In this document: positions 13,922-49,918 of the stretch, in pieces
Layout of the letters: each line of letters begins with the position of its first letter
How positions within the stretch are numbered: the stretch's first letter is position 1
DNA from: a virus
Reading direction: 5' to 3' (one strand)
IMG/VR virus record: IMGVR_UViG_3300022744_000001
Span: 194,022 to 258,021 of that record
Length of the DNA: 64,000 nt
Notes under the pieces: generated by a model
Databases searched by the model: none
Told to the model about the DNA's origin: nothing
The model's input: only the letters and a program-made list of their open reading frames with translations
Made by a program: the position numbers and the translations under genes

Positions 13922-13924
13922 GCC

Positions 13925-14448: not shown

Positions 14449-14582
14449 ATTCGCTTTTTCGTTGACATTGGATGGACGCGGCAACCGCCCCCAACCGATG
14501 ACGAATTTTCCCCGCGAGACACTTCCTCCGGTGTTTCACAGCAAACGGGCGCGCAAGTTGGGTTGAACACGACCGCAGCTTG

Positions 14583-14611
14583 TTGGCGCTCCGAAAAAGT
14601 AACTGTATATT
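14583..14611 (+). promoter_or_regulatory. sigma70-like promoter (TTGGCG-N17-TATATT)
   Basis: The -35/-10 pair sits about 45 bp upstream of the ATG at 14659, within a 200 bp non-coding stretch. Confidence 0.3.
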
Positions 14612-14658
14612 GCGGGGCCTTCCAACCCCGCGATTCAAGATGGCACAAGGGGACATCA

Positions 14659-21522: not shown

Positions 21523-22107
21523 ATGGAACCCCCTGTCACATACCACCCGAAGTTCGTCGCGGATCCCGACCTCGCTCTCAAGACGCTCCAGAACGAACTG
21601 GAGTGGGAGCGAAGGTCGGATGCGCCTCGGTCGGAATACTACTGCAACGACTTCCAGAAGCCCTATGTCTACGGCCGCGGTAATGGTCGAAGGACGTACA
21701 TGCCTCGCCCCTACCACCCGGTGGTGATGCAGATCCGGAGCCAGCTGGAGACGCTCTTGACCCATTGGTTCGAGGTCTGCTTCCTGAACCGCTACCTCGA
21801 CCAGAGCGACCACCTGGGCTGGCACGCGGACGACTCCCCGGAGATGGACGACCTGCGGCCCATTGCCGTCGTGTCCTTGGGCGTCGAGCGCGAGATCTGG
21901 TTCCGCCCGAAGGTGGCCCCTCTGCCTGACGGGGTCGTGTCGCTCGCGGACGTCCAGAAGCTCAAGCTCGAGCACGGAAGCCTCTGCGTCATGGCGCCGG
22001 GCATGCAGGACGCCTGGGAGCACCGAATCCCCAAAGCCTCGTTCAAGTGCGGCGAGCGCATCAGCTTGACCTTCCGCGGCTACGTTGAGCCCCCGGTGCT
22101 GCCATGA
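21523..22107 (+). CDS. alkB: AlkB-like 2OG-Fe(II) dioxygenase (alkylation repair)
   Basis: LGWHADDSPEMDDLRPIAVVSLG...ISLTFRGY aligns with the E. coli AlkB HxD...H core and the RxNLTFR motif. Confidence 0.75.
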   Translation: MEPPVTYHPKFVADPDLALKTLQNELEWERRSDAPRSEYYCNDFQKPYVYGRGNGRRTYMPRPYHPVVMQIRSQLETLLTHWFEVCFLNRYLDQSDHLGWHADDSPEMDDLRPIAVVSLGVEREIWFRPKVAPLPDGVVSLADVQKLKLEHGSLCVMAPGMQDAWEHRIPKASFKCGERISLTFRGYVEPPVLP

Positions 22108-24793: not shown

Positions 24794-26020
24794 ATGGCAT
24801 ATGACCTGATCTGGAAAGCAGACGAAGCCCTCCCAAAACCCCAACCCGTTGCTGTCTGTGCGCGCGAACCTCTCCCCGATCGCACACGAAAAAGCATCTT
24901 CCTCGCAGGCCCGACGCCGCGAGACCAGAACACGCCGAGCTGGCGGCCCGAAGCTCTCCGCATCTTGGACAAGCTTGGGTATGACGGCTACGTCTTCATT
25001 CCCGAGGACCGTTCAGGTACCTTCTCCGGCGACTACACGGCACAGGTGGAGTGGGAGACGGCCGCGCTGAACGTGGCCGACATCATCGTCTTCTGGGTAC
25101 CTCGCGACATGAAGACCATGCCTGCCTTGACCACGAATGTCGAGTTCGGCATCTGGATGGATTCCGGCAAAGTCGTTTTGGGGGCGCCGGATTCAGCCGT
25201 GAAAAACACCTACCTCAAGTGGTGGGCGAGCAACCTGAAGGTACCTTTCTCCAACAGTCTCGAGACCACGCTGCAAGCGGCCATCGACGCCATTGGAGAC
25301 GGGGCTTCCCGCTGGGGTGGCGAAGCGCAAGTGCCGCTCCACATCTGGAAGCACCCGACCTTCCAAGGCTGGCTGCGAGCCCAGAAGGGGGCGGGCAACC
25401 GCCTCGATGGGGCCAAGGTCCTCTGGAGCTTCCGCGTAGGTCCAGAGCGCAAGAAGACGTTCGCTTGGGCCCTCCACGTGAACGTCTACGTGGCCTCCGA
25501 GGATCGAAACAAGACCAACGAGTTCGTGTTCGGTCGAGTCGATATCGCCTCTGTGGTCCTCTACCACCGAGACGACACGCACATGGACAAGGAGACCGAC
25601 GTGGACGTCATCCTGGTGCGTGAGTTCCGCTCCCCCGCACGTACGTCAGACGGGTTCATCGTCGAGCTGCCTGCGGGCAGCATCGAGAAGCTCGACCCCA
25701 AATCGGCCGCGCTGAAGGAGCTGGAGGAGGAGACCGGGGTCAAACTCGACCCGAACCGCCTTCGCCTGGTAGGTACCAAACAGGTGGCGGGTACCCTCTC
25801 TGCTCACACTTCGGTCGTTTACGCCGCCGCGATCGAATATGAGGAGTACGAAGAAATTCTCCGAACCATGGGAAAAGTCCGAGGGGTCGCTGAGGATACC
25901 GAGCGCACCACAATCACGGTAGACCGCCTCGACCATCTGCTCAGCGGAGCGAATGGTACCGAGGTAGATTGGGCGACCTTGGGGATGATCAGTGCCGCAG
26001 TTCTGACCCACAGTGATTGA
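24794..26020 (+). CDS. nucleoside 2-deoxyribosyltransferase-like domain fused to Nudix hydrolase
   Basis: The N-terminal half reads IFLAGP...TNVEFGIW, matching the NDT/SLOG fold. The C-terminal half carries the Nudix box ELPAGSIEKLDPKSAALKELEEETGV. Confidence 0.65.
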   Translation: MAYDLIWKADEALPKPQPVAVCAREPLPDRTRKSIFLAGPTPRDQNTPSWRPEALRILDKLGYDGYVFIPEDRSGTFSGDYTAQVEWETAALNVADIIVFWVPRDMKTMPALTTNVEFGIWMDSGKVVLGAPDSAVKNTYLKWWASNLKVPFSNSLETTLQAAIDAIGDGASRWGGEAQVPLHIWKHPTFQGWLRAQKGAGNRLDGAKVLWSFRVGPERKKTFAWALHVNVYVASEDRNKTNEFVFGRVDIASVVLYHRDDTHMDKETDVDVILVREFRSPARTSDGFIVELPAGSIEKLDPKSAALKELEEETGVKLDPNRLRLVGTKQVAGTLSAHTSVVYAAAIEYEEYEEILRTMGKVRGVAEDTERTTITVDRLDHLLSGANGTEVDWATLGMISAAVLTHSD

Positions 26021-30132: not shown

Positions 30133-30173
30133 GACCATGGTCATCGTGACCATGGTTATCGGAACCATGGTCC
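30133..30173 (+). promoter_or_regulatory. three tandem 15-bp units each containing the palindrome (G)ACCATGGT(C); candidate operator array
   Basis: ACCATGGT occurs at 30134, 30149 and 30164 with exact 15-bp spacing, directly upstream of the NAD-operon regulator. Confidence 0.4.
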
Positions 30174-30943
30174 TCAACACCAGGGTAGTCATGTATCGTT
30201 ACAAATATCCGCGACCGTCGGTTGCTGTGGATCTCGTCACCTTTGGGTACGACGCGACCCAGGCAGAGATCAGTGTCCTACTCATCAAGCGCAAGCACGA
30301 TCCCTTCGAAGGGAAATGGGCCTTGCCTGGGGGGTTTGTCGAGGTTGGAACCGAGGACGATTTCTCGGGGTCAAAGCCTTCGAACTACGGGGAGTCGCTC
30401 GAGGACGCTGCGCGTCGTGAGCTGAAGGAGGAGACTGGGGCGGAGCCCGAGTACATCGAACAGCTCGGGACGTTCGGGGACCCCAATCGTGATCCTCGCG
30501 GGCGAGTCATCTCGGTCGCCTACCTCAGCCTCGTGCGCTCCAAGGACCTCACTGTCAAAGCCAGCTCGGATGCAGCCGAGGCGGTGTGGTGGCCTTTGAA
30601 GTCTGCCCTTCGCCAGAAGTTCGCCTTCGACCACAACACCATCCTGAATCAGGCCGTAACTCGACTTCACTCAAAGGTTCGGTACGCGCCAATCGGGTTC
30701 AACCTTCTCCCGCAGAAGTTCACCTTGCACGAGCTGCAAGAACTCTACGAGGCGCTTCTCTTGCGCCAGCTCGATAAGAGCAACTTCCGAAGGAAAGTGC
30801 TCTCCGTGGGGATTCTGGCCGAGGCCGGTCAACGCGTCCACGGGAAGCAAACCGTCCAACTCTACCGATTCGACAAGCGCGCCTACGACAAGGTCAGCGC
30901 TGCTGGCTTCAATTTCGAACCCAAGTTCGTGAAGGGGAAATGA
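30137..30943 (+). CDS. Nudix hydrolase domain + C-terminal winged-helix (NrtR-like ADP-ribose-responsive regulator)
   Basis: Nudix box GGFVEVGTEDDFSGSKPSNYGESLEDAARRELKEETG. C-terminal FTLHELQELYEALL...DKSNFRRKVL resembles the NrtR wHTH. The real start is probably the ATG at 30191. Confidence 0.6.
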   Translation: MVIVTMVIGTMVLNTRVVMYRYKYPRPSVAVDLVTFGYDATQAEISVLLIKRKHDPFEGKWALPGGFVEVGTEDDFSGSKPSNYGESLEDAARRELKEETGAEPEYIEQLGTFGDPNRDPRGRVISVAYLSLVRSKDLTVKASSDAAEAVWWPLKSALRQKFAFDHNTILNQAVTRLHSKVRYAPIGFNLLPQKFTLHELQELYEALLLRQLDKSNFRRKVLSVGILAEAGQRVHGKQTVQLYRFDKRAYDKVSAAGFNFEPKFVKGK

Positions 30944-32355
30944 TCATGCTTCGACCCAACCTCGCACTCAACACCGACTCCTACAAGCTCTCGCACCCGT
31001 GGCAATACCCTGACGGGCTCGAGTACATGCAGTCCTATTTCGAAAGCCGTGGTGGCCTCTTCGGAAAGACCATGAGCCTTGGCTACCAGGGGTTGGCCAA
31101 GACCAACCTGCTCGACCCGGTCACCAAGGACGACGTGGAGGAAGCCAAGGAGGTCGCGGAGGCCCATGGCGAACCTTTCGAGTACGGCGGCTGGATGCGC
31201 ATTGTGGACAAGTTCGAGGGCAAGCCCCCCATCCGCATCTTGGCCGTGCCCGAAGGTACTATGGTCCCGACGCACAACTTGCTGATGCGGGTGGAGTCCA
31301 TGGACAAGGAAACGGCGTGGCTCCCCGGGCACGTCGAGTCCATGTTGGTCCGCCTTTGGTACCCGCAGACGGTCGCGACTCTCTCGCACTACATCAAGCG
31401 GGACATTCTCGAGGCCCTGATCAAGTCGTCCAACGACCCCTGGGGGGAGATCCTCTTCAAGCTGCATGACTTCGGGGCTCGAGGGTGCAGCTCGCTCGAG
31501 ACGGCGGGTATCGGCGGTATGGCGCACCTGGTCAATTTCCAGGGCACCGACACCATCGAGGCTCTTCGCTACGTCCGGAAATACTACGGCGAGTCGATGG
31601 CGGGGTTCTCCATCCCCGCGGCGGAGCACTCGACCATCACGAGCTGGGGCCGGGAGAACGAACTCCTCGCCTACCGGAACATGGTCAAGCAGTTCGCGAA
31701 GCCCGGCAAGTTCGTGGCGTGTGTCTCGGACAGCTACGACATCTACAACGCGGTTCGTCTCTGGGGCAGTGAACTCCGCGAAGAGGTCAAGGCCAGCGGC
31801 GGCACCCTGGTCATTCGTCCTGACTCCGGCATCCCCGTCGAGGTGGTCATGAAGTGCCTCCGCATCCTGGAAGACCAGGTGGGCATGACCAAGAACATGA
31901 AGGGGTACAAGGTCCTCCCGTCCTACTTCCGCCTGATCCAGGGTGACGGGGTCAACCGCGACTCCATCCGCGAAATCCTCGCCGAGATGCTCGCGAACGG
32001 CTACTCGGCGAGCAACATCGCCTTCGGCATGGGTGGCGGCCTCCTGCAACAGGTCAACCGCGACACCCAGAAGTACGCCTACAAGTGCTCGCAGGTCATC
32101 ATCAACGGGCAGCCCCGTCGCGTCTTCAAAGACCCGGTCACGGACCAGGGCAAGAAGTCGAAGGCAGGCAACTTGGACATCGTGTTCGAGAACGGGCAGT
32201 TCAAGACCATCGAACTCGAGCCCGGCACCTCTCTCAGCCGCAACACGGCACTCAAGCCCATCTACGAAATGGGCAAACTCTTGGTAGATGAAAAGTTCTC
32301 CGACGTGCGGAAGCGTGCTGACAGCGACCTCGTCGAAGGCTACGGAAGGGCATGA
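30940..32355 (+). CDS. nadV: nicotinamide phosphoribosyltransferase (NadV/Nampt)
   Basis: LALNTDSYKLSHPWQYPDG...YFESRGG matches the NAMPT N-terminus. 471 aa, ATGA-coupled to its neighbours. Confidence 0.85.
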   Translation: MIMLRPNLALNTDSYKLSHPWQYPDGLEYMQSYFESRGGLFGKTMSLGYQGLAKTNLLDPVTKDDVEEAKEVAEAHGEPFEYGGWMRIVDKFEGKPPIRILAVPEGTMVPTHNLLMRVESMDKETAWLPGHVESMLVRLWYPQTVATLSHYIKRDILEALIKSSNDPWGEILFKLHDFGARGCSSLETAGIGGMAHLVNFQGTDTIEALRYVRKYYGESMAGFSIPAAEHSTITSWGRENELLAYRNMVKQFAKPGKFVACVSDSYDIYNAVRLWGSELREEVKASGGTLVIRPDSGIPVEVVMKCLRILEDQVGMTKNMKGYKVLPSYFRLIQGDGVNRDSIREILAEMLANGYSASNIAFGMGGGLLQQVNRDTQKYAYKCSQVIINGQPRRVFKDPVTDQGKKSKAGNLDIVFENGQFKTIELEPGTSLSRNTALKPIYEMGKLLVDEKFSDVRKRADSDLVEGYGRA

Positions 32356-33449
32356 CCATGATCACGAATCAACCAGCTGCTGTTTTGCTCAACCACGCGC
32401 CGTTGCGGGTTGCCATCGCGGCTTCGGGGGCCGGAGCAGGACTCCAGAAAACCCTCTGGGACGTTCCCGGCATCTCCGCGGTCTTGGTCGAGGCTTCCTT
32501 CCCCTATGCGATGGAGGCGACTGACCAGTTCCTGCGGTTCAAGCCTGACCGGTATTGCTCGGCTTGCACTGCCGTCGAGATGGCCATGGAGTGCTACTAC
32601 CGGGCATTCCAGTACAACGGCCCCCGGGCCATCGGGGTTGGGCTCAGTGCCTCGGTGGCATCCCTAAAAGCCCACCGGGGCGAGCACCGGGTCTTTGCGG
32701 CGTCCTTCTCGGACAAGGGGTGCCGGGTCTACGAACGAGTGCTGGAGAAGACCAACGAACCGGCAACCCTCGCTCGTGTGCTTGACGGGGCGGTGGCCGA
32801 CGCCATGGGCCTTCTGGCGCTCCTGGAGGCCGTAGGAGCGGCGATGGACAACGCCCCCGAGGCAACCGACTATGACGGGGCGGCCCTCGCTCACGAGGCG
32901 TTCTGGGCCCGTCCTGTGTTCACCAAGACCGGGCAGCGGGTGACCGAGGCTGAGGCCGAGGTGGAAGCGATCTTCCCCGGGGCCTTCAACCCGCCCCATC
33001 ACGGGCACTTTGGGATGGCCCACAACTTCCAAGGGTATACTCGGATCAGCCCCACCTTTCATGTCACGGCGGAGACGCCCCACAAGCCCCCGCTTTCCGT
33101 GGCAGAGATGCTGCAACGAGCCAAGATGCTTGAGGGGCACCACCGGATGTTCACCCGGAACGACCCCCTGTACGTGGACAAGGCGGCCAAGTTCCCCGGG
33201 CGTCCGATCCTCGTCGGGTCGGATGCGCTCGAGCGCCTGCTCGACCCCAAGTGGGGGCCAACCCCAGAAGAGCTGGGCTCCACATTCGAGGAGCATGGGA
33301 CGGTTTTCTACGTCCCTGAAACCCGGGTCGTGAACGGCCGCGAAGTGAAGCTCGAGGACCTGACCCTACCCAAAGGCTTGAGGGTGATTCGACTCCCTGG
33401 CCGTTGGGATGTCAGCTCCTCCGAGCTTCGCGCTACTTCCGCCGCTTAG
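32352..33449 (+). CDS. CinA-C/PncC-like domain fused to nicotinamide/nicotinate mononucleotide adenylyltransferase (NMNAT)
   Basis: The C-terminal GAFNPPHHGH...VSSSELRA matches NadD motifs. The N-terminal LWDVPGISAVLVEASFPYAME...ACTAVEMAMEC...GVGLSASVAS aligns with the CinA C-terminal (NMN deamidase) fold, but the ESCTGG motif is replaced by ASGAGAG. Confidence 0.65.
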   Translation: MTMITNQPAAVLLNHAPLRVAIAASGAGAGLQKTLWDVPGISAVLVEASFPYAMEATDQFLRFKPDRYCSACTAVEMAMECYYRAFQYNGPRAIGVGLSASVASLKAHRGEHRVFAASFSDKGCRVYERVLEKTNEPATLARVLDGAVADAMGLLALLEAVGAAMDNAPEATDYDGAALAHEAFWARPVFTKTGQRVTEAEAEVEAIFPGAFNPPHHGHFGMAHNFQGYTRISPTFHVTAETPHKPPLSVAEMLQRAKMLEGHHRMFTRNDPLYVDKAAKFPGRPILVGSDALERLLDPKWGPTPEELGSTFEEHGTVFYVPETRVVNGREVKLEDLTLPKGLRVIRLPGRWDVSSSELRATSAA

Positions 33450-35205: not shown

Positions 35206-35772
35206 ATGGGGTTGGAACCGGAGATCGACATCGACGCTTACTGGAGTGACTTGCGGTCACCGCAAGATCCCACCCTTGAGAGGGTTCTGACTTGGGTACC
35301 CACGGAGCAACCTTTGCTGGACGTGAATTCCCTTTCAGGGGTGCTCCCAGCTTTGCGCCAGAGGGGTGACTCCCTCGTTTGGACTCTCGGGCAACACCAA
35401 GCTCTGCTACAGGATGTGGTCGGGGCTCTTTTGCGAAAACTACCCCCGCGAGCCTGGTCGTTCACCAACATGCCCTCTGACGTAGGGTCTTACCCCAAGC
35501 TCTACCAGTATGTCATGGAGGTCAAGTTCTGCCTGGTAGAGGGTTTGCCTTCTGCACTCGAACAAGCTCGGGGGGTCCTGGAGACCCACCTGCAAGAGAA
35601 CCTGCGGGAGGCCCTCGTTTTCTATCAATGGTGTCACGCCAATGAGCACGTCCCTCGGGCGATTCTCGTATTCGACGCCTGGAACCATGCGTCGGCAAAT
35701 GAGCATGCAGATGTGACAAGCATCCTCACCTATGCTGGCCCCGCCATAGGGGTACTCCGAGGGAACTCATGA
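35206..35772 (+). CDS. hypothetical protein
   Basis: 188 aa. Confidence 0.45.
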   Translation: MGLEPEIDIDAYWSDLRSPQDPTLERVLTWVPTEQPLLDVNSLSGVLPALRQRGDSLVWTLGQHQALLQDVVGALLRKLPPRAWSFTNMPSDVGSYPKLYQYVMEVKFCLVEGLPSALEQARGVLETHLQENLREALVFYQWCHANEHVPRAILVFDAWNHASANEHADVTSILTYAGPAIGVLRGNS

Positions 35773-36110
35773 GCCGCCACGCATTTGCAGACGTCCTGAA
35801 GGAGGCGCGGATTGCCAGAGGTCTCAGTCTGCGGGCTTTCGCTTCCGAGATCGGGTACTCCGCCCCTTACATCCACGACGTGGAGAGCGGCCGTCGCAAC
35901 CCTCTTTCCGACGATGTTCTGCCGAAAGTGGCCGAGGTCTTGCGAATCAGCCTGACCGACTTACGCAGAGCCGCCGCCACAAGTCGTCATGGGGGATTCC
36001 TGCTTCCGCTGGCATCCGAACGTCATGACAACGTGGCGGCTATCCTGGCCCGCAGGTGGAAGAAGCTCGAGCCGGAGCAGCTGGAAGCCGTCCTCGAAGC
36101 TATCAGTTGA
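35769..36110 (+). CDS. XRE-family HTH transcriptional regulator
   Basis: ARGLSLRAFASEIGYSAPYIHDVESGRRNP is a classic HTH_XRE. Confidence 0.7.
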   Translation: MSRHAFADVLKEARIARGLSLRAFASEIGYSAPYIHDVESGRRNPLSDDVLPKVAEVLRISLTDLRRAAATSRHGGFLLPLASERHDNVAAILARRWKKLEPEQLEAVLEAIS

Positions 36111-36744
36111 GGCCGGTGGGAGGGGCACTCGAACCCGGGCCTTGGTCCTGGCCGGGAATGCGCCGAATGCCCATGATCATCATCCTCCCCGCTGCCTCGT
36201 GCTGGGAGTGGCTGTCCACCTGCAAAACGACATTGACCACGGTGCGACCCAGCCGCATCCAGGCTTGCTCGAGCGCCTTAACCCCCTCGTTGACGTCGTG
36301 GACCAATGAGTGCATCTCCTCGGAGATTTCGCAGTTCGAATCGTGCAGCAGCTCCACAAACAAGGACGCGATATCGATCAACAGGTCGTGTCGCTCCTCG
36401 GGGGAAGCCCCGCTGAACTTGCGCACGCTTTCGAGCAGGTCCGGGGACGTGAACAGGTCGTCCTTGTGGATGCGCCCACAAGCCCCGCATACCTCACTGG
36501 GAGGGGCCCCTTTACTCCGCCAGATGCTGGCCGCAGATGTCACCACCTCCGAAACGGTCTCCTCCCCACGACGGGAGACAACCACTGTGACGACGGGGGC
36601 CCAACCAGTTTTGGACTGCGCGAGCTTGATGTCCTTGATCGTGCCCTCAATCCGCAATCCGCCCGCATCTGTTTCTACTTCTGCCCCAATCGCGAGATCT
36701 TGTTCTGCCATGTTTTCTCCGTGACAATCGTACACCGGAATCAA
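36103..36744 (-). CDS. hypothetical protein
   Basis: 213 aa. Confidence 0.4.
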   Translation of the reverse strand: MIPVYDCHGENMAEQDLAIGAEVETDAGGLRIEGTIKDIKLAQSKTGWAPVVTVVVSRRGEETVSEVVTSAASIWRSKGAPPSEVCGACGRIHKDDLFTSPDLLESVRKFSGASPEERHDLLIDIASLFVELLHDSNCEISEEMHSLVHDVNEGVKALEQAWMRLGRTVVNVVLQVDSHSQHEAAGRMMIMGIRRIPGQDQGPGSSAPPTGLN

Positions 36745-37445
36745 CGGCGTCTCGTTTTCTTGCGCTTCGACGTTTCCGCTTCCCTTGCGGCCGTGACCAG
36801 ACGAGCTTGGTCTTGACGAGCTTGGTCTTGCTCTTCCGCCTCTTTGGCCGCGACGATGGCGGCCCGGTTCATGTGAGCGCGGTCCATCGCCTCGTCGCCC
36901 GTGATTCGCTCATAGGGGACCTTGTTGTCCCGAAGAGCCCGGACACGTTCGATCTCGTCCTCCGAATGAACCGTTCCGCCCGCGTTCAAGTCGATGTACC
37001 AGGAGTACACGTCGTTGATCGTCTTGAGTTCGTTCACGTGCCACCGGAAGCGGCACTGCATGATGTCGAACCCGTCCGTGTACTCCCGATGGTAGTGGCC
37101 GAACGCTTTGATCTCGTTGCTCAGGTAGCCAATGACTGCATCAATACGCTGCTTGCCGTCCACGAGCACGTACCAGCACTTTGGGTCGTTTTTGTCCACG
37201 AACCCCTGCCACGTGGGGCAGTTCGTGTAGATGTCCTTGCCCGACTTGCCGCCGCTCAGGATGTACTCGACGAACCGAGTTTTCTGCGCCTCTGTCCAGA
37301 CGTTCCCTCGCTGGAAGTTGGGGTTGACGTCCAGGCCGTAGTCCATCACCTGGCTGTAGTAGTATTTCGCAAGGTAGTTCCACCCCACGTCAACGGCGTA
37401 CAGCCCGGCACTGGGGGTCATCTGGGGGATATCACGATAGCGCAT
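36741..37445 (-). CDS. DUF262 (ParB-like nuclease domain, DGQQR motif) protein
   Basis: NFQRGNVWTEAQKTRFVEYIL...LVDGKQRIDAV. A 15-bp tandem repeat (QDQAR x2) sits in the C-terminal coding region. Confidence 0.6.
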   Translation of the reverse strand: MRYRDIPQMTPSAGLYAVDVGWNYLAKYYYSQVMDYGLDVNPNFQRGNVWTEAQKTRFVEYILSGGKSGKDIYTNCPTWQGFVDKNDPKCWYVLVDGKQRIDAVIGYLSNEIKAFGHYHREYTDGFDIMQCRFRWHVNELKTINDVYSWYIDLNAGGTVHSEDEIERVRALRDNKVPYERITGDEAMDRAHMNRAAIVAAKEAEEQDQARQDQARLVTAAREAETSKRKKTRRR

Positions 37446-37484
37446 GGGTTCTCCTGAGAGAGTAACGCGCCTGCTCTCGAGAAC

Positions 37485-37985
37485 CTATACCGCTTTGAAG
37501 CTCTGCGCCTTCTTTTGAAGGGCTTCGGCCACAATCGGGTGGACATAATAGCTCACGTCCGCGCCCCAGCTCGCCAGCTCTTTGACGTTCGTGGAACTCA
37601 CGAACGACTGTTCCGGTTGGGTCATCAGGAAGATCGTGTCGATGCTCGGGCAAAGCTGGCGGTTCACATGCGCGATCCCCATCTCAGCCTCAAAGTCGGC
37701 GATGGCGCGCAGCCCACGAATGATGGTTTTGGCCCCTACCTGCTTGCAGAAGTCCACAAGAAGGCCGCGGAAAGGCATCACCGTGACCTTGGGGATTTTC
37801 TCGGCCACAAAAACCTGGGTGATGAGTCGAACGCGCTCCTCTTCGTCGAAGAACGGCTTTTTCTTGGAATTCATCAGAACCCCGATCACCAACTCGTCCG
37901 CGATCTCAAGACCTCGCGTAGCGATGTTGAAGTGTCCGTTGGTGAACGGGTCGAAACTGCCTGCGTAAGCCGCGATCTTCGTCAT
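37485..37985 (-). CDS. coaD: phosphopantetheine adenylyltransferase (CoaD/PPAT)
   Basis: AYAGSFDPFTNGHFNI, IRGLRAIADFEAEMGIAHVNR and IFLMTQPEQSFVSSTNVKE align closely with E. coli CoaD along its whole length. Confidence 0.85.
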   Translation of the reverse strand: MTKIAAYAGSFDPFTNGHFNIATRGLEIADELVIGVLMNSKKKPFFDEEERVRLITQVFVAEKIPKVTVMPFRGLLVDFCKQVGAKTIIRGLRAIADFEAEMGIAHVNRQLCPSIDTIFLMTQPEQSFVSSTNVKELASWGADVSYYVHPIVAEALQKKAQSFKAV

Positions 37986-37996: not shown

Positions 37997-38236
37997 TTAG
38001 TTTGGGAGTCTCCCCTTCATACCCCGGCCCTTGGGAGTGGCAAGCTCTCGCCGGAGGTCTTCCTTGATCATTTCCAGCTGCTGAGGTGTGGGCTCAGCGC
38101 CGCCGACCCTGATTTTCACTGTGCCTTCGTGCCCGGTGGGCTCCACATCCACCAGATAGGGGGCCACACGCCAAAGGCGAGCGATGCGCTTGCGAAATGC
38201 CTCGAGCTTTGGGTTCACAGCAAATGCTCCGTACAC
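37997..38236 (-). CDS. hypothetical protein
   Basis: 79 aa. Confidence 0.35.
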   Translation of the reverse strand: MYGAFAVNPKLEAFRKRIARLWRVAPYLVDVEPTGHEGTVKIRVGGAEPTPQQLEMIKEDLRRELATPKGRGMKGRLPN

Positions 38237-38305
38237 GAATCCTCCAGTGAGGCATTAAGCCTCTCACAAGGAGAACGCGCGAGCCCACCGAAATCTATAC
38301 CGGGT

Positions 38306-38743
38306 TCAGCGTTTCCACCGCAGAGACTTGGGTTTATCGCTGGGCGCCGGTTTGGGGGGTTCGGGCACCTTGGGTGGCGGCACGATCTCGACCCGCTTTG
38401 GCAGCTTCTTGGGCTTTGGTCGCTTCTTGGGGCGAGGGAGGCGGGGAGGGGCGGGGAGGTAGTCGTCCCCCGGCTCTGGCGTGCGCCTGGGCTTGCCGTT
38501 GGTCCGGCGCTCCGGCTCCTGGGGCAGCTCAACGTACTTGTCCCGGTTCTTCCGGAACTCCTCCGGGTCTTTGTAGACGATCTCACCGGTCTCCTTGTTC
38601 TTGACCTTCACGGTCTTGCGCTTGCCACGGGCGAATCTCTCCATGACTCGGAGAGCCAACTCGAGGTCCCCTGCGGGCAACCGAACAAGATGTGCGAGAA
38701 CATCCACCACTAGGGTTGAGCCGACAAAACGATCAGCGCCCAC
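38306..38743 (-). CDS. hypothetical protein with basic P/K-rich tail
   Basis: 145 aa. Confidence 0.4.
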   Translation of the reverse strand: MGADRFVGSTLVVDVLAHLVRLPAGDLELALRVMERFARGKRKTVKVKNKETGEIVYKDPEEFRKNRDKYVELPQEPERRTNGKPRRTPEPGDDYLPAPPRLPRPKKRPKPKKLPKRVEIVPPPKVPEPPKPAPSDKPKSLRWKR

Positions 38744-39038
38744 CCGGGTACATGCGTTTCCAGGCGTCCCACTCGACGTTCACCTGAAATCGGCCGAGCT
38801 TCTCGTTCCAGAAGAATGCAGGGTGAGTGACGCGGGCCCCGAGCTTGTTCACGCTCTCCTCCGCCAAAACCCGATTGGCCTGCTCGAGGTCCAACGCGGT
38901 CAGGTCGATACGACCCGTCGAGGCATCCACCTCAACCACCTGGAACCACGCGCTCTCGGTCGTCTCCCAACCCGCCTTCGTAGGGTCCGGGGTCGTTTTC
39001 GAGTACGAGAATTTCTGACCAATCTTCGGCAGTTGCAT
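38733..39038 (-). CDS. hypothetical protein
   Basis: 101 aa. Confidence 0.4.
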   Translation of the reverse strand: MQLPKIGQKFSYSKTTPDPTKAGWETTESAWFQVVEVDASTGRIDLTALDLEQANRVLAEESVNKLGARVTHPAFFWNEKLGRFQVNVEWDAWKRMYPGGR

Positions 39039-39046
39039 GACCGTAC

Positions 39047-39427
39047 CTACACCGCTTTACGCAGGACCAGCACCTTCTGGCCGCCCCGGTCTTCGATCAT
39101 GGCTTCGACTTTGAACGCCTGTTTACAGAACTCCCCGATGAGGTTGAGCTTCTGCCCAAAGGTGGTCTCAAAGATGCAGCCGAATTTCTCGCCGATGTAC
39201 GCCGCATTGAACTCCTGAGCGAGCGGCTCCCCCACATGCGTGTTGGCCTCGGTGAAGTCCTGCCCATTGGCCATGGCTCTCTCGCACAACTGAATGTATT
39301 CGTTCATGAATCCAGCGAACTCGATGAACGCGTGGTTCCCGATGCGAGTGGCTCCCGTGTAGAAGCCGCTCGAGAGCTGCCTCATACCCGCAATCATCCT
39401 TTGAAGTTCCGCCTTTTCGTAGATCAT
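39047..39427 (-). CDS. hypothetical protein
   Basis: 126 aa. Confidence 0.4.
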   Translation of the reverse strand: MIYEKAELQRMIAGMRQLSSGFYTGATRIGNHAFIEFAGFMNEYIQLCERAMANGQDFTEANTHVGEPLAQEFNAAYIGEKFGCIFETTFGQKLNLIGEFCKQAFKVEAMIEDRGGQKVLVLRKAV

Positions 39428-39504: not shown

Positions 39505-40062
39505 ATGAGCTTCATTGGCATCAAAGTGCCTCACGAGGTCGGTCGTTTGCTTCACACCATAGAGGTACCGGGCGAAAAGGTACCTCTCCACGAGTTCCAC
39601 GTGACCCTCCTCTACCTGGGCAAAGAAGTGCCCATTGAAACCTTGGGCAAGGCCATCGTGGCCGCGGCCGAAGTCGCGGAGTCGTACCGCCCCTTCCGTT
39701 GCACGCTCACGCAAACCAGCTCTTTCCCCAAAGGCGATGACGGGGTACCCATCATCTGTCCTGTGGACAGCCCCGAACTCCACGAACTCAATACGCAGCT
39801 CAAAGCAGCTTTTGACGCGGCGGGAGTGGACTACTCGAAAAAGTTCCCCGACTACAAACCGCACGTGACGTTGGCCTACTCCGACGAGGTCACAGCGGAC
39901 ACGCTGTTCGGACCACTCGAGTGGTCCGCCTACGAGATGGTGCTCTGGGGCGGGGACGCGGGGGATGAGCGTCTTGCCACCAACTTCCCATTTGCCTTGC
40001 CCACGACGGTAGCCACGAACCAGCAGCTCGTACGCCTCGCCATGGCGATGAAGAAGAGCTAG
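39505..40062 (+). CDS. 2H phosphoesterase superfamily protein (LigT-like)
   Basis: Two H-x-T-x motifs are present: FHVTLLYLG and PHVTLAYS. 185 aa. Confidence 0.65.
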   Translation: MSFIGIKVPHEVGRLLHTIEVPGEKVPLHEFHVTLLYLGKEVPIETLGKAIVAAAEVAESYRPFRCTLTQTSSFPKGDDGVPIICPVDSPELHELNTQLKAAFDAAGVDYSKKFPDYKPHVTLAYSDEVTADTLFGPLEWSAYEMVLWGGDAGDERLATNFPFALPTTVATNQQLVRLAMAMKKS

Positions 40063-40891: not shown

Positions 40892-42322
40892 TCAATCCTC
40901 GTCGTCTTCGTCCTCATCTTCGTCGTCGTCTTCATCCTCGTCTTCGTCGTCGTCCTCTTCGTCGTCCGAGTTATCCTCGTCGTCGTAGTCGTTGCCTTCG
41001 TCCTCGTCGCCCTCTTCGTCGGCGTCCTCGTCGCCTTCGGCTTCCTCTTCCTTGTCCTCCTCGATTTCGTTGTACTTGAAGAAATCGTAGACCTGGGAAA
41101 GGGTCATGGGCTGATTGAACTCGGCTTCGTCGCCCTCGGAGAGGCGGGCGTAAACTTCCTGCGCCCTCTCCACGCTCAGCGGTCCGATGTAAACCTGCTT
41201 CGACAAACGACCCGTGCGAAGCAGCGCGTCGTCGATCTCCTGCATCTTGGCGTTTGTGGTGCAGATGATACGAAGGTTCAAGGCGCTACCCAAGATACCA
41301 TCGCTTGCATTGAGTAGGGCGGAGATGGCTGCCAGGTTGGCCTCATCGTTGTCCACCACTGGGCCCACCGTTTTGAGAAGTGCGTTTTGCGCATCGATGA
41401 GGATGGTCGCCACTTCAGGGGTCAACATTTGCTTGGCAAGAAGGCCGCCGATGAGGTCGAACAGCTTCTGGAACTCCTTGACCAACGAGGATTCCTTTTT
41501 GCGAGGAACCAGCGCTCGGTCGGCATCCTCGATGAGAAGCACGATGGGCTTTTCGACCCCAATCATGCTGCGAGCACGGATGAGGGTAGGTACGAGGTTC
41601 GGACCGGCCAAGTGCTCGACCATGCCCGCCGGGATCAGAACGAACACGGCGTCGTAGACCTCGTGCAAGAGGCCCCGGATGAAGAACGTTTTGCCGGTGC
41701 CCGGTTCGCCCTGAATGATGACCAAACGGCCGATGGGGGTGGCGCGTTGCAGGTCGTCCACGATGAAGTCGAAAGCATCGACCACATCGGCTTCGTAGTT
41801 GTCACGCTCGATGGGAACGCCCGCAAGGCCCACTTCACCGATCTCGATGCCGTTGGCCCCCTGGGCAAGGGAGTAGATGGGCTGGCGAACGAACTCGGGC
41901 AACAGATGGTCCCCGAGACGCTTGTTGACGTCCTCGAACGTCTTCCGGTTCGTGGAGACCACGCGGATGTCGTATTTGTTATCCAGACCGGTGTGGATTT
42001 TGACGGCGCCCTCTGGCCAGAAAAGCCAGGTTTCACTCGTGCCACGCCCGAAGATGGGCACATCTGCGAACGGAGAGCGGGCTCCCGTGATAGATGCGAT
42101 GGCCTCGAAGAGCTTCTCCTGCCCCTGCTCGTCGGACTCCTCGATCAGCACTCCACGGCACCCACCCGAGAACACGGTGAGGTTGTTTGCGACAGCATGG
42201 TCAACGAGCATCGTCGCCGCAGGCCCATACTCCTCCAGCACCAGTTTCCCTGGAGCCCACCAATCCAACTTGGGAGGCTCTTTCGGCGGCTCGCGTCGGC
42301 TCTTGTCGTTCTTGGTTGCCAT
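40892..42322 (-). CDS. classic AAA-family ATPase with poly-acidic C-terminal tail
   Basis: Walker A IIQGEPGTGKTF, Walker B VLLIEDAD, sensor-1 CTTN and SRH ALLRTGRL are all present. About 70 C-terminal residues are almost entirely D/E. Start taken at MATKNDK (42322). Confidence 0.7.
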   Translation of the reverse strand: MATKNDKSRREPPKEPPKLDWWAPGKLVLEEYGPAATMLVDHAVANNLTVFSGGCRGVLIEESDEQGQEKLFEAIASITGARSPFADVPIFGRGTSETWLFWPEGAVKIHTGLDNKYDIRVVSTNRKTFEDVNKRLGDHLLPEFVRQPIYSLAQGANGIEIGEVGLAGVPIERDNYEADVVDAFDFIVDDLQRATPIGRLVIIQGEPGTGKTFFIRGLLHEVYDAVFVLIPAGMVEHLAGPNLVPTLIRARSMIGVEKPIVLLIEDADRALVPRKKESSLVKEFQKLFDLIGGLLAKQMLTPEVATILIDAQNALLKTVGPVVDNDEANLAAISALLNASDGILGSALNLRIICTTNAKMQEIDDALLRTGRLSKQVYIGPLSVERAQEVYARLSEGDEAEFNQPMTLSQVYDFFKYNEIEEDKEEEAEGDEDADEEGDEDEGNDYDDEDNSDDEEDDDEDEDEDDDEDEDEDDED

Positions 42323-42504
42323 GATTTTCTCTTCTTTTCGTCTCCGGAGGCGTCGAGCCTCCCGCCTTCCCGTACACCAATCACATGCTGAACTTGGGCT
42401 TTTGCCCGCATTCGCCTCAAAAAAGCCACGAAACGGCAGCGGAGCCGGTAGGTTTGCGCTGGGAAATCCCCGAGCTGAGCTAAACCGCCCTTGGCTAAGT
42501 TGAG

Positions 42505-42735
42505 CTATTTGCTGGGTTTCGGTTCTGAATTTGGGAAAATGGAAGCAATGAGGCAGCCCAAGTGATAGGGCACTTCCCGGTCTTCCTCTTTGGTGGCCGC
42601 CGCGAAGGGCAGAACTACGCCCCGGTCTCCATGGCGTATCGGTTCTTGGCACGCAAAACAGGGTTTTGACGGGGTGGACACTTGCTGCCCGGTTTCACAC
42701 ACCCCTGCCTTCCACGGCGGCCCGAACCACTTCAT
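42505..42735 (-). CDS. possible small Cys/His protein in long divergent intergenic region
   Basis: 76 aa ORF (CFACQ...HLGC). Weak support. Confidence 0.2.
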   Translation of the reverse strand: MKWFGPPWKAGVCETGQQVSTPSKPCFACQEPIRHGDRGVVLPFAAATKEEDREVPYHLGCLIASIFPNSEPKPSK

Positions 42736-43804: not shown

Positions 43805-46042
43805 CTACTCAGCGGCTTCGGCGAAGTTCCCCGGACCAACAAGACCAACCAAGTGCTGACGCGCGACCCGGTACGTGTTCTTCGCGGTCTGGATCTCGGC
43901 CCGAATGGCCGCGCTCTCGAGGTTGCGATCAATGGTGTTGATGAGGTCGTCGGGGGTGATTTCAATGCCGTTCTCCCGCAACATGCGCTCGAGCTTGGCC
44001 TGACGCTCGAGCGAGAACTTGGAGCGGTCAAACTTCGTCCCCTCCTCCTGCAAGAACTTCACGACCTCTTGAGCCTTCTCTGGCCTGCGGTTCACGAAGT
44101 TGCGCATGTTCTTGCGCCAGAGGTCGTCGGCCATCTTGCGCACGGTGTCGCCCACGGCCCCCTCGAGTTTGGTTGAAGCATCGGTCCATGCCACGTCCGA
44201 GAAATTCGGGGACAGGGGCAAGTACGACAAGGAGCGGCGGAGCAGCTTCACACGGTCCACATGAGCCAGCTCGCCCACCAGAAGGACCTTGGCGAAGCGG
44301 CGGATGATGGGCATGGACATGCGCTCGGGATGGTTCGTCGCGCCCCACACGGAGATACCCGAGTAGGAGAGCACGCCGTCCATGAGAATCTGGAACTCGG
44401 TTGTGAGGTTCGTACCCCCGAACGCTTCGTGTCCCTGATTGCCGTTGAGCACCGTGTCGATCTCGTCGATGGAGATGAACGCTTGGCGCTCGGTCTCCTT
44501 GTGGAGCTGCAAGGCAGCCTCGAACAGGCGCTTGGGGTTCTTCTCGGCCTCACCCTTCCAGCAGGTGAGGAAGTCGGAGCCCTGGGCGAAGATGGTGAGC
44601 GCATTCCTCTCGCTGCTGATGGCTCGGAGAGCCTCGGTCTTGCCACACCCCATGGGGCCGACCAAGAGCACGTTGCTCTTGTCGGTCTTGCCGCTCGGGC
44701 TCGTGGCCCGGAAAAGGTCGGCGTACATGGACGAGTCCTTCGCCTGCTCGACCATCTCCCGAACTTCGTCGAAGCCCGACCCCACCAGGTCCCCGAGCGA
44801 GACCTTGGGCTTGAGGCCCGGGATGACCTCGAGCGCTCCAGGGGCCTCCCCCAGGAAGGAGTTGCCCGCCCCCACCTTGCACACGTAGAACGAGTTCTCG
44901 TCCCGGTGGATCTTGTACCACTGGGCCTTGCGTGCGAGCACGAACTTCACGATTTCCTGCCCGCTCTTCTCAGTGAGGAGTAGGCCCGAGATGGTCGAAA
45001 TCGTCTCGTTGCGGAAGTCGATCTCCATCTGCTCTTCGGGACTCTTGAGGCCAACCTTGTCCCTCTCCCGAACGTTGCGGGGGTCAAGCTCGCTGACCGA
45101 ACGGAGAGCCTCTTTGAACTCCGACTCATTCATGAGGCGGCGCGGGGGCTTGCCTCCAGTCACGCGGCGGATCTTCTCGGCCGCCGTGTGAATCTTGGCC
45201 TCGATTTTCTCCGCCCCTTCCCACATGGAGGTGAGGTTTTCGGAAAGGAAGTCGATGATTTCCCCGGGCTCCTTCACGAACCCGCCGAAGAGGCCACCAC
45301 AGAGGGCGTCGGCCAGGATCGTGGCCTTGCGCTGGGTGTAAACGCTGATCTCGTCCGGCTTCTTGCCGTCCTGGATTTCACCATGCGCGTCCGCGTTCTC
45401 GTAGATGGAGATGGCCAGGTCCGTACGAACGGGGTCACCGTGAATTTTGATGCCTTCCACGCTGTGCCGGTGTCGAAGCATCTTGTGGTACATCTCGAGG
45501 TGGAAAACCACGCCTCGAGCAATAGACACCACCAGGTTTTGCAGGACAGCGGCGTTCTCAACCCCTTCCACGAAGCGCTGCAAAGGCTCCTGGTTCATCT
45601 GCACCAGAAGCACGAACGCTTGCAGCTCCTCTCGGGTCGTCGGGGGTTTGACGTCGCCGAAGAGCATGAGGTTCATGGGTTGAATCGCATGCACCGTGTC
45701 GCGGAGCGCGTGAAATCCGTTCTGAATTGCCCGGGAGATGCTGAGGATGAGCGCCACGAAGTTGCCTGCGCCCATCGTGTGCTTGAACTGCTGAAACCAG
45801 TCCTCTTGCTGGTTCATGTCGAAGGGGTTCTTCGTTCTGAGCGAGTTCTTGGCCTCTGCGACCATCGCGCTGTAGGTGTCCCCGATCTCCTCGACGCGCT
45901 CATCGAATTCTTCGCACAACTTGTCGAGGAAAGCCCCGGTTTCACGAAGGCCGTCGTAGTCGAAGTCCAACACCAGGCCCACGAGATCCGTGAACTGGGC
46001 CGGAGTGATAGATACTTTGGAAACCATTTTGTCGATGTACAT
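43805..46042 (-). CDS. large classic AAA-family ATPase with about 480 aa unique N-terminal region
   Basis: Walker A VLLVGPMGCGKTE, Walker B FISIDEIDTV and sensor-1 GATNHPERM are present. Start uncertain: the track's extreme end (46075) would be TTG; the first in-frame ATG is at 46042, with another at 46027. Confidence 0.65.
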   Translation of the reverse strand: MYIDKMVSKVSITPAQFTDLVGLVLDFDYDGLRETGAFLDKLCEEFDERVEEIGDTYSAMVAEAKNSLRTKNPFDMNQQEDWFQQFKHTMGAGNFVALILSISRAIQNGFHALRDTVHAIQPMNLMLFGDVKPPTTREELQAFVLLVQMNQEPLQRFVEGVENAAVLQNLVVSIARGVVFHLEMYHKMLRHRHSVEGIKIHGDPVRTDLAISIYENADAHGEIQDGKKPDEISVYTQRKATILADALCGGLFGGFVKEPGEIIDFLSENLTSMWEGAEKIEAKIHTAAEKIRRVTGGKPPRRLMNESEFKEALRSVSELDPRNVRERDKVGLKSPEEQMEIDFRNETISTISGLLLTEKSGQEIVKFVLARKAQWYKIHRDENSFYVCKVGAGNSFLGEAPGALEVIPGLKPKVSLGDLVGSGFDEVREMVEQAKDSSMYADLFRATSPSGKTDKSNVLLVGPMGCGKTEALRAISSERNALTIFAQGSDFLTCWKGEAEKNPKRLFEAALQLHKETERQAFISIDEIDTVLNGNQGHEAFGGTNLTTEFQILMDGVLSYSGISVWGATNHPERMSMPIIRRFAKVLLVGELAHVDRVKLLRRSLSYLPLSPNFSDVAWTDASTKLEGAVGDTVRKMADDLWRKNMRNFVNRRPEKAQEVVKFLQEEGTKFDRSKFSLERQAKLERMLRENGIEITPDDLINTIDRNLESAAIRAEIQTAKNTYRVARQHLVGLVGPGNFAEAAE

Positions 46043-46074
46043 GGCCAACCAGTACACCGGCAGGTGTAAAGGCA

Positions 46075-47295
46075 ATGCACATGGACCAGTTTGTTCGGCG
46101 AAAATTAACCGAGCTGAAACCCCACCCTAAGAACGACGCATTCTTCCATGACCTGCGCCTATCCCCTAAATACCCGCTTGTACGGGAACAGGTTTGCAGT
46201 GGCGAGATCCAAAACCCGCTCACTGTCCTGTCGGACGGCACGGTTGTATCGGGCCACCTTCACTATCTAGCCGCTCTTGAGCTTGAGGTAGAGGAAGCTC
46301 CCATTCAGCTTTACGAGGGGAACTGGAACGAGGTGCACGAGCTGGAGTTCTTGCTCCAAGCGAACGCCCAACTCGGGTACCTGGGGTTCGAACAGATAGC
46401 GATCGCGTACTCTCTCCTTTTGGGAGGGGCGATTGAGAAGCCCAAGGACGCCAGCAAAGGCGGGCGGCCGAAGAAGGGGGCTGCCCCATCTCCGGAACGG
46501 CGACAAAGCACCAAAGAGCGGGTAGCGCGGCTCCTGGGGGTTTCTGCGAAAACCGCAGAGCACTTGCACCTGATCTACCTGACGCCCGGGGTCCCTGCGG
46601 ACATTCACGACGCTGTTGAAAACCGAATGGTCCCCATCGCCCTCGCGGCGGATGCGGTGCAGTTCAGCATCCATGAGGCCCTTCGACGCAACCCTCACAC
46701 GAAATTCGTCGTGGTGGACCCGATTGACGTGCGTACGTACATCGAGACGCCCCCAAACAAACGACGCACGAAAATGGTGGACCTGCTCAAGGGCAAGCGT
46801 CCCCGCCCCCTCCCTCCCGTCATGCTCGAGGGGAAAGAAGTTGCTGACTACCACAAGCGGGTCTTTTCTTCGGTCCCGCCCCCCTTCCATCCAAAGCAGA
46901 GCGTGCAGAGCATGATTCGAGACGGGGTCCACTGGGATGATCTCGAGGTGCCAGACAACGACATCCCGCTTCACGAGGCCATTGGGCGCATTCGGGCTCG
47001 ACTCAGCAAGGCTTTCGAGGCCCCCGTCCTGGTACACGAGGACAAGGTCGAGGAGGCCCTAAACTCGCTCCTTTTGGAAGTTGCGCGGCTCATGAAGTCG
47101 CACCACGGCAAGGAAGTCTCGGTCCGCATCGGGAGCGCTCCAGTAGCCCCCAAACCGCGCCCCAAAGCCACCGTGAAACCCAAGGCAGAGTCAAAGCCCC
47201 CTTCGAAGCCCCCGGCCCCCACCGTCTTCGCTACCGAGGTCGAGTTCATCGTCTCCTTGCTCGGGCTGGAGACCGTCCAGGCACTAGGGCGCTAG
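46075..47295 (+). CDS. ParB N-terminal-domain-like protein
   Basis: LKPHPKNDAFFHDL...LTVLSDGTVVSGHLHYLAA resembles the ParB/Srx fold with its GxxR-type motif. Confidence 0.5.
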   Translation: MHMDQFVRRKLTELKPHPKNDAFFHDLRLSPKYPLVREQVCSGEIQNPLTVLSDGTVVSGHLHYLAALELEVEEAPIQLYEGNWNEVHELEFLLQANAQLGYLGFEQIAIAYSLLLGGAIEKPKDASKGGRPKKGAAPSPERRQSTKERVARLLGVSAKTAEHLHLIYLTPGVPADIHDAVENRMVPIALAADAVQFSIHEALRRNPHTKFVVVDPIDVRTYIETPPNKRRTKMVDLLKGKRPRPLPPVMLEGKEVADYHKRVFSSVPPPFHPKQSVQSMIRDGVHWDDLEVPDNDIPLHEAIGRIRARLSKAFEAPVLVHEDKVEEALNSLLLEVARLMKSHHGKEVSVRIGSAPVAPKPRPKATVKPKAESKPPSKPPAPTVFATEVEFIVSLLGLETVQALGR

Positions 47296-49562: not shown

Positions 49563-49918
49563 AGACGGCTCCTCACGACGTTGACGATGGCGCTGGCGAC
49601 TCGTTTGGCGTTGTCATCTTCCCCGGTGAGGTCGCCAAGGAGCATGGCCACCGCGGTCTCAGTGCTCACGGGCAGAGCGCGCAGAACTCCAGCGTCGATG
49701 CTCTCCCGCATCATCCCGAGCGCGATGGAACTCGCGTCATGCCCAAAGATGCCTTCGCAAAGGGCATTCATGTGAGCCCAGCTCGAGACGTCTGGCCGAG
49801 GCGGCGGGATGGTTGTCGGACGGGCCGGGGGAGGGGTACTGCGACGCACGGAAGGCCGCTTTTTCGGTTGCTCGCTCATTGCATCGTCTACACCGCTGGT
49901 GTCATACACACATGGCAA
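49559..49918 (-). CDS. hypothetical protein
   Basis: 119 aa. Confidence 0.4.
   Translation of the reverse strand: MPCVYDTSGVDDAMSEQPKKRPSVRRSTPPPARPTTIPPPRPDVSSWAHMNALCEGIFGHDASSIALGMMRESIDAGVLRALPVSTETAVAMLLGDLTGEDDNAKRVASAIVNVVRSRL

Follow-up and report, generated by a model that had tools for sequence, protein, structure and literature searches.

We analysed a 64 kb stretch of viral DNA (IMG/VR virus record IMGVR_UViG_3300022744_000001, positions 194,022 to 258,021; GC 59%), here called the window, which carries coaD, a gene for phosphopantetheine adenylyltransferase (PPAT), next to a gene for a DUF262 protein. The reading that we favour, with a probability of about 0.6, is that coaD encodes an auxiliary PPAT in a cofactor and counter-defence island of a huge phage, where it sustains coenzyme A (CoA) synthesis, and that the DUF262 protein is independent of it. 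The phage enzyme would convert 4'-phosphopantetheine and ATP to dephospho-CoA and pyrophosphate, the regulated penultimate step of CoA synthesis, and may thereby keep up or raise the flux to CoA during a long and demanding infection. Final phosphorylation would be left to the host CoaE, or to a CoaE that the phage encodes beyond these 64 kb. CoA inhibits PPAT by feedback, and in E. coli the enzyme is a secondary control point of the pathway. The gene appears to have been acquired long ago and inherited vertically in a huge-phage clade, within a block that would hold cofactor and counter-defence genes (a NAMPT/NMNAT/Nudix module and an Acb1/LigT-like phosphoesterase), and its presumed co-transcription with the DUF262 gene would reflect lineage-specific gene order rather than joint action.

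The coaD gene and its phage setting

The two open reading frames (ORFs) that an initial annotation of this DNA had singled out were both recovered on the minus strand with exactly the same ends:

37485..37985, minus strand: coaD, phosphopantetheine adenylyltransferase (PPAT), 166 aa (TIGR01510, matches to solved PPATs, PHROG 29208)
36741..37445, minus strand: DUF262 protein with a ParB/Srx-fold NTPase-like domain at about residues 1-175, 234 aa (Pfam GmrSD_N)

Long spurious ORFs are frequent at the GC content of the window. Both genes had the GC3-rich, GC2-poor codon pattern of real genes, with a GC3 of 0.76 for coaD and 0.80 for the DUF262 gene. The CoaD protein scored 179 bits with TIGR01510, the NCBIfam equivalog model for coaD, whose cut-off is 103.3 (E=6e-53), with the match spanning residues 4-159 of 166 and model positions 1-154 of 155, and it matched Pfam CTP_transf_like at 79 bits. 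The sequences of 34 solved PPATs aligned with it end to end (best E=1e-41), and NMNAT models reached only 16-26 bits, far under their cut-offs. Bacterial PPATs such as those of E. coli (1B6T) and S. aureus (3F3M) are of the same length and fold family and share the T/HxGH and SxxSS(S/T) motifs, K42 and R88/R91 (E. coli numbering) with the window CoaD. The window CoaD differs from them in being encoded by a huge phage as a solo gene in 64 kb and in being 43-52% identical.

An alignment of 20 phage and bacterial PPATs (A2) was used to examine individual residues. CoaD carries the N-terminal signature G9-S-F-D-P-F-T-N-G-H18, in which G9, S10, F11, D12, P13, T15, G17 and H18 were invariant. In a separate alignment with three orthologues from related huge phages and with the E. 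coli PPAT, which was 43% identical to the window CoaD, K42, R90, R93, D97, E101, N108 and S130-S131 were conserved, and these positions were also invariant in A2. The corresponding E. coli residues are K42, R88, R91, D95, E99, N106 and S128-S129, which we take to be the ATP and phosphopantetheine ligands. Conserved too were the residues that presumably contact 4'-phosphopantetheine (K42, L73/M74, which are LL in CoaD, and N106; E. coli numbering). The only difference among the ligand-site residues listed was at Y98 of E. coli, which is Ala in the window CoaD. CoaD is therefore an authentic-looking PPAT that is probably active, judging from its sequence. The initial annotation had called it very close to authentic PPAT, which the model score and intact catalytic motifs bear out, and had allowed that the enzyme might be inactive, for which the retained catalytic and substrate-binding residues gave no support.

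Three orthologues from related huge phages, at 45-56% identity, retained all PPAT motifs. Cellular homologues found were 43-52% identical, and because the nearest were only about 50% identical we do not regard CoaD as a recent host capture. In a crude neighbour-joining tree, made from BLOSUM distances with no support values and used only as consistent with a phage clade, the window CoaD grouped with those of the related loci L006 and L010, with the L012 protein and proteins of large contigs (e.g. P0079, 404 kb) nearby, and the Caulobacter and Brevundimonas phage PPATs fell on a separate branch. The retention of motifs at this divergence together with the clustering suggests long purifying selection inside phages, and would fit an old acquisition kept in a huge-phage clade, and separate gains of the gene elsewhere.

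The window belongs to a huge phage of about 448 kb and covers a region of accessory genes. The identical PPAT protein was present on a contig of 448,224 bp that several samples yielded in independent assemblies, and the region was gene-for-gene collinear with contigs of 75, 407 and 470 kb, the 407 kb one being a viral genome from IMG/VR. A 793-aa protein of the window matched the phage-only PHROG 2426 (595 bits), and its homologues occur in about 500 Ackermannviridae and Rhizobium phage records. Cargo typical of large phages was found throughout the window and included a Dam methylase, dNMP kinase, ThyA, DHFR, nucleoside deoxyribosyltransferases, RNase HII, ClpX, AAA ATPases, an R2K ATP-grasp protein, a peptidoglycan hydrolase and many ORFans. 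No tRNA genes were found in the 64 kb, and no housekeeping genes were found among the approximately 70 window ORFs scanned with Pfam. A megablast of 15 kb around the coaD locus against the phage collection gave 0 matches, indicating a phage that is without a close sequenced relative. It is barely credible that the region is instead host chromosome or a misassembled host fragment carrying the host's own coaD. The 64 kb window has no virion structural gene, and several PPAT-bearing records filed as phages are evidently host DNA (see below), but the distance to the nearest cellular PPATs, the lack of tRNA and housekeeping genes, PHROG 2426 with its Ackermannviridae homologues, the collinearity with IMG/VR viral contigs of at least 407 kb and the independent recovery of the contig all argue against a host origin. 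The same collinearity, PHROG matches and gene content speak against host chromosome flanking a prophage, which the initial annotation had named as a possible source of error.

Viral PPATs and their gene neighbours

A tblastn search covering 50,697 phage records found PPAT in 7 Caulobacter Bertelyvirus genomes and 7 Brevundimonas jumbo phages, where it is annotated as PPAT, as well as in 15 Lak megaphage records, the 735 kb uncultured phage LR756501 and Myxococcus phage Mx1 (annotated). In addition, coaD and coaE have been listed among the most abundant auxiliary metabolic genes of viromes, along with NAMPT, nadM and nadR (PMC11097641). The claim that this enzyme had not been reported as a phage gene was thus mistaken, given the annotated Caulobacter, Brevundimonas and Myxococcus phages, PHROG 29208 and this virome study; the window coaD is a well-supported further example of a known auxiliary metabolic gene in jumbo and huge phages. 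The PPATs of Caulobacter Bertelyvirus C1/C2/J4/RB23/BL47, Brevundimonas vB_BpoS, Mx1, Lak and LR756501 belong to the same enzyme family as the window CoaD, but are only 32-36% identical to it and lie on separate tree branches.

A PPAT has also been reported in the Microcystis 'jumbo phage' PhiMa05/MaAM05 (PMC8093824). In the MaAM05 record (MW495066.1; L015, 1-12471) the gene is flanked by rplA, rplK, nusG, secE and tRNA-Trp and also by trxB and ilvD, and this stretch looks like bacterial chromosome. Because of the first five of these neighbours the MaAM05 PPAT was rejected as dubious and was not counted as a precedent. Several other PPAT matches in records labelled as phage, on short contigs of Listeria, Salmonella and E. 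coli, were evidently host DNA.

The initial annotation had proposed a survey of phage databases for coaD homologs and their neighbours, and this showed that many viral contigs carry them. Single-sequence scans of IMG/VR with CoaD or with the DUF262 protein returned no matches and only alignment-based queries succeeded. With these, at least 107 viral contigs with CoaD were found, many of them 200-550 kb long. We retrieved 80 CoaD loci with 8 kb flanks and clustered all flanking ORFs; the loci represent 62 lineages, or 63 counting the window. The commonest neighbour was CoaE (dephospho-CoA kinase), present in 24 of the 80 loci and 21 of the 63 lineages. CoaE was fused to CoaD in 11 loci and stood as a gene of its own, next to CoaD or at most about 1.1 kb away, in 13 more, and Pfam PF01121 confirmed it on 7 representative loci. 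The fusions are:

L046, L048, L057, L059, L061, L066, L068, L070, L078, L079 and L093, with CoaD at about position 8000: PPAT-CoaE fusions, single polypeptides of 349-389 aa

LR756501 has CoaE immediately downstream of CoaD. That CoaE is so often fused or adjacent indicates that viral CoaD is naturally partnered by the enzyme of the following CoA step, and the frequency of this partnership in turn points to CoA, rather than dephospho-CoA (dpCoA) or dpCoA-capped RNA, as the usual end product of viral PPATs. These fusions and pairs are functionally like the eukaryotic bifunctional CoA synthase, which combines PPAT with dephospho-CoA kinase, and with them many huge phages have genes for the complete salvage half of CoA synthesis. 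The window CoaD shares their PPAT domain and presumably their role, but it is a single-domain protein, and its clade lacks the adjacent or fused CoaE of LR756501 and of many IMG/VR contigs. Neither tblastn nor a CoaE hidden Markov model found a CoaE-like ORF in the 64 kb window, and CoaE was not found in the sequence available for the closest relatives.

NAD-salvage genes were the next most recurrent neighbours, found within 8 kb of CoaD in 12 of the 80 loci, or 10 of their 62 lineages, and, counting the window, in 11 of the 63 lineages. Near CoaD, 10 lineages had an NrtR-like Nudix gene, 7 had NAMPT and 5 had a gene for an NMNAT-like protein; CoaE and NAD genes were found together in 6 lineages. 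In Caulobacter phage C1 the PPAT gene is about 4 kb from annotated NAMPT and NMNAT genes, beside a helix-turn-helix (HTH) gene. A similar distance separates coaD in the window from the following module:

30137..33449, plus strand: NAD+ salvage module, NARP2-like, about 4 kb from coaD (Pfam)
30137-30943, plus strand: NrtR-like Nudix protein with a winged HTH domain (Pfam NUDIX and NrtR_WHD)
30940-32355, plus strand: NAMPT (Pfam NAPRTase, 193 bits, and NAMPT_N)
32352-33449, plus strand: NMNAT-like protein, 365 aa (weak CinA and CTP_transf_like matches)

In the window the assignment as NMNAT is a weak one, and the L006 orthologue likewise had only a weak CTP_transf_like match. The domains of the NrtR-like Nudix protein suggest that it is the regulator of the module or an ADP-ribose pyrophosphatase. 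NARP2 (NAMPT plus NMNAT) is a phage pathway for rebuilding a cofactor; PPAT is no part of it and acts on a different cofactor. NARP2 occurs in about 1.1% of phage genomes (bioRxiv 10.1101/2024.02.11.579819), and compared with this figure the 11 of 63 lineages are suggestive of an enrichment of NAD salvage near viral CoaD, in an estimate uncorrected for phage size and kinship.

The stand-alone DUF262 protein next to coaD

GmrSD_N (PF03235) was the sole domain that Pfam detected in the DUF262 protein, at 37.1 bits against a cut-off of 33.2 (E=4.5e-9, residues 39-153); no DUF1524/HNH nuclease domain and no HTH domain were found. The AlphaFold model (pLDDT 92) has a ParB/Srx core followed by a long helix at residues 195-233, and this charged C-terminal helix ends in the basic tail KRKKTRRR. 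The protein had been described as a solo ParB-like NTPase domain, in agreement with the lone GmrSD_N match and the fold. The title of the same annotation called it a nuclease-domain protein, which is inaccurate since DUF262 is the NTPase/ParB-like half of GmrSD, and the motif that its text gives as DGQQR reads DGKQR in the window protein (V-D-G-K-Q-R, residues 95-100).

In a 35-sequence family alignment (A1), F44-Q-R..W50, V95-D-G-x-Q-R100..A103 and N154-x-G-G-T-x-H160 were invariant. Position 98, the first Q of the GmrSD-type DGQQR, was K in 34 of the 35 members and R in the other (P0172). The segment G97-K-Q-R100-I-D-A103 fits the ParB box II pattern GxxRxxA for CTP binding, with G97, R100 and A103 invariant. 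Classical DUF262 proteins presumably have T or S after the motif (DGQQRLT[T/S]), where the solo family has the invariant Ala. The family profile weakly matched two DUF262 structures, 9JFL and 7P9K, in the regions of the motifs, and in PADLOC the protein matched only the N-terminal part of NsnA and PD-T4-2_A. GmrSD, BrxU, SspE and DndI have the N-terminal ParB/Srx fold and the FQR..W, DG(K/Q)QR and N.GG motifs in common with it, but the phage protein is less than half their size and has the charged helix and basic tail in place of the C-terminal DUF1524/HNH domain. Compared with the ParB, Noc, KorB and PadC CTPase clamps, no HTH or dimerisation domain was detected in it, no parS or partner ATPase was evident and the sequence similarity was negligible. 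Lacking nuclease and HTH domains and matching defence proteins only in part, at the N terminus, it is neither a GmrSD enzyme nor a canonical ParB. It is an independent, stand-alone ParB/Srx-fold protein that probably binds a nucleotide triphosphate, and its basic C-terminal tail suggests a possible association with DNA. Our best guess is that it works as a stand-alone nucleotide-binding switch; alternatively, it might interfere with host DUF262 enzymes.

More than 200 homologues of the DUF262 protein were found at 45-61% identity, about 230 aa long and many on contigs of 200-470 kb. The core family of about 170 aa also occurred in at least 91 bacterial genome contigs, with some copies beside P22 NinX, MazF or IS605-type genes, neighbours that suggest prophage or mobile contexts. 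On Pseudomonas chromosomes (L145, L146 and L172, at about 6000-7100) a gene of the P22 NinX family directly follows a solo DUF262 homologue, which places this homologue in the 'nin'-type accessory region of a lambdoid prophage. Across 57 loci the solo DUF262 gene had no conserved neighbour. The literature on DUF262 that we found deals with GmrSD-type defence enzymes, with no coverage of solo phage DUF262 proteins.

The initial annotation had implied a link between the two genes. In the window a gap of 39 nt, in which no terminator-like site was found, separates them, and each gene is preceded by a purine-rich Shine-Dalgarno-like sequence. The adjacency is kept in L006 with a 41-nt gap, and in L012 a 49-codon ORF lies between the genes. 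A 3.5 kb insertion containing an SNF2 helicase separates them in L010, and in L008/L009, which belong to a 392 kb phage, CoaD is absent within 8 kb of the DUF262 gene. The DUF262 family was found within 8 kb of CoaD in just 1 of the 80 viral loci, in the genome of L010, a close relative. Among sequenced phages only the Brevundimonas jumbo phages carry both PPAT and DUF262, at a distance of about 37 kb; DUF262 alone is found in Sinorhizobium, Ralstonia and Vibrio phages and in LR745208, and PPAT alone in Lak, Caulobacter C1-type and Mx1 phages. Given the 1 in 80 loci and the largely non-overlapping distributions, we regard the adjacency as conserved gene order in one clade and no functional module, and the implied link found no support. 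There is only a very slight chance that the genes form a functional pair, with the ParB/Srx protein acting for instance as a kinase or regulator of the CoA branch or with PPAT supplying its ligand. The short gap with no terminator and the conservation in L006 and nearly in L012 would fit such a pair, but the rarity of the family near CoaD, the insertion in L010, the DUF262 gene of L008/L009 with no CoaD nearby, the many DUF262-bearing phages and prophages without a CoaD match in the searches of phage records and the lack of a recurrent CoaD neighbour in bacterial loci are all at odds with it. The conserved motifs, moreover, are those of DNA-associated DUF262/ParB NTPases. On these distributions (1 of 80 loci, no conserved neighbour) the ParB/Srx protein was rejected as a CoA-pathway kinase partner of PPAT.

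Other genes were seen near DUF262 family members. The gene at 24794-26020 (plus strand) of the window encodes a 408-aa fusion of a nucleoside 2-deoxyribosyltransferase-like domain with a NUDIX domain, and a 50%-identical homologue in the 485 kb uncultured phage LR745208.1 (L003, 20001-23257) is about 1 kb from two tandem solo-DUF262 paralogues. Near the DUF262 gene of L008/L009 (7522-10390) are a ribosomal-protein-L12-domain gene and a gene for a PEP-utilising enzyme, near that of L010 (12844-13908) is an AcrVA2-like gene, and near that of L012 are NADAR (2742-3311) and adenylosuccinate synthetase (13867-15204) genes.

Role of the phage PPAT and the surrounding locus

Upstream of the coaD block is a divergent gene that bears on the role of the enzyme:

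39505..40062, plus strand (divergent): 2H-phosphoesterase, LigT/Acb1-like (Pfam)

The protein matched 2_5_RNA_ligase2 at 56.9 bits, LigT_PEase at 39.4 and Acb1 (anti-CBASS) at 35.4 against a cut-off of 27. The gene is conserved beside the coaD block in related huge phages and was present in 6 of the 80 viral CoaD loci. From these matches it is a candidate counter-defence gene that would degrade cyclic-nucleotide signals.

In this setting PPAT could itself serve counter-defence, rebuilding CoA from 4'-phosphopantetheine after a host effector or toxin has cleaved CoA or dephospho-CoA, as the NARP pathways do for NAD+. We consider this unlikely. The position of coaD about 4 kb from the NARP2-like NAMPT/NMNAT module and near the Acb1/LigT-like gene speaks for it, as do the recurrence of NAD salvage near viral CoaD relative to the frequency of NARP2 in phage genomes and the fact that PPAT and CoaE together make up precisely the salvage half of the pathway, whose starting compound is a product of CoA breakdown. 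However, we found no CoA-depleting defence system in the literature and the NARP papers make no mention of CoA, a common location in the accessory islands of huge phages says little about a shared purpose, and the enrichment estimate is uncorrected for phage size or relatedness. The initial annotation had pictured CoA being rebuilt in parallel to NAD+; the CoaE and NAD-salvage neighbours (21 and 11 of 63 lineages) agree with that half of the idea, and the CoA-depleting host response that it entailed was not found in the literature. By analogy with NARP1-3, the phage PPAT, alone here and with CoaE in many other phages, might be called a 'CoA reconstitution pathway', a proposal that we hold to be doubtful. 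If it were true, a still undiscovered bacterial effector or toxin would deplete CoA or dephospho-CoA during infection, and the NAD+ salvage and Acb1-like neighbours would mark a general island that counters cofactor depletion.

It is quite unlikely that the enzyme acts in RNA capping, attaching 4'-phosphopantetheine to pppA-RNA, which would serve as the adenylyl donor, so that phage or host transcripts with a dpCoA cap are altered in stability or recognition. The capping work on E. coli PPAT is reportedly that of Sapkota et al. 2024. The phage PPAT keeps the E. coli active site. As reviewed, the E. coli enzyme caps pppA-RNA in vitro and model RNAs in vivo, but the reaction is inhibited at normal ATP levels (PMC11253889). 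The dpCoA-cap idea of the initial annotation is thus biochemically possible, but the CoaE fused or adjacent in one third of the viral CoaD lineages points to free CoA as the product, and the locus holds no RNA-specific gene except the unrelated LigT-like gene. Less likely again is a drift in substrate, with the enzyme using NMN or another phosphorylated acceptor and serving the adjacent NAD+ pathway rather than CoA. PPAT and NMNAT share a nucleotidyltransferase superfamily, the NMNAT models matched weakly and the NAD module is close by, but the PPAT equivalog score stands against NMNAT matches that were all far under cut-off, the residues presumed to contact 4'-phosphopantetheine are conserved and the phage has an NMNAT-like gene of its own.

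Several points weigh against an auxiliary PPAT that sustains CoA synthesis independently of DUF262. The coaD gene lies among likely counter-defence genes, and a defence-related role fits this equally well as a metabolic one. The 64 kb window has no CoaE or other CoA-pathway gene, so the phage of this clade adds one step only. In 3 of 4 related lineages (the window, L006 and L012) coaD and DUF262 are adjacent or nearly so and probably co-transcribed, and a lineage-specific functional link between them retains some residual likelihood. Finally, we found no biochemical study of any phage PPAT in the literature, and no activity, expression or metabolite data.

The remaining ORFs of the locus are:

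37997-38236, 38306-38743, 38733-39038 and 39047-39427, minus strand: four small ORFs upstream of coaD, on the same strand with short gaps
36103..36744, minus strand: co-oriented ORF downstream of the DUF262 gene, no assigned function (gene-caller ATG at about 36711, 202 aa)
35769..36110, plus strand: XRE-type HTH regulator (Pfam HTH_31/HTH_3), present in L006, L010 and L012

The four small ORFs (37997..39427) are collinear in L006, L010 and L012, and only 39047-39427 has a PHROG (37280, function not assigned). No terminator-like sites were found on the minus strand across 37997..39427. A sigma-70 promoter scan found none, and terminator-like sites were no commoner than in shuffled sequence. 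Going by strand and spacing only, the four ORFs, coaD and the DUF262 gene probably form one transcription unit. The downstream ORF (36103..36744) had no Pfam or PHROG match and was 29-37% identical to its counterparts in L006 and L012.

Two large AAA+ ATPases are encoded on the minus strand beyond the coaD block, one at 40892-42652 with a tail of about 60 residues that are almost all Asp or Glu, and one at 43805-46075 that resembles the IetA defence ATPase (PADLOC, E=1e-10). Elsewhere in the window are a DHH/DHHA1 phosphoesterase (9902-10738, minus strand), a DUF1848 protein (12115-12939, plus strand), an AlkB-like 2OG-Fe(II) oxygenase (21523-22107, plus strand), the R2K-clade ATP-grasp protein (49813-50892, plus strand) and a carbon-nitrogen hydrolase (60115-60894, minus strand).

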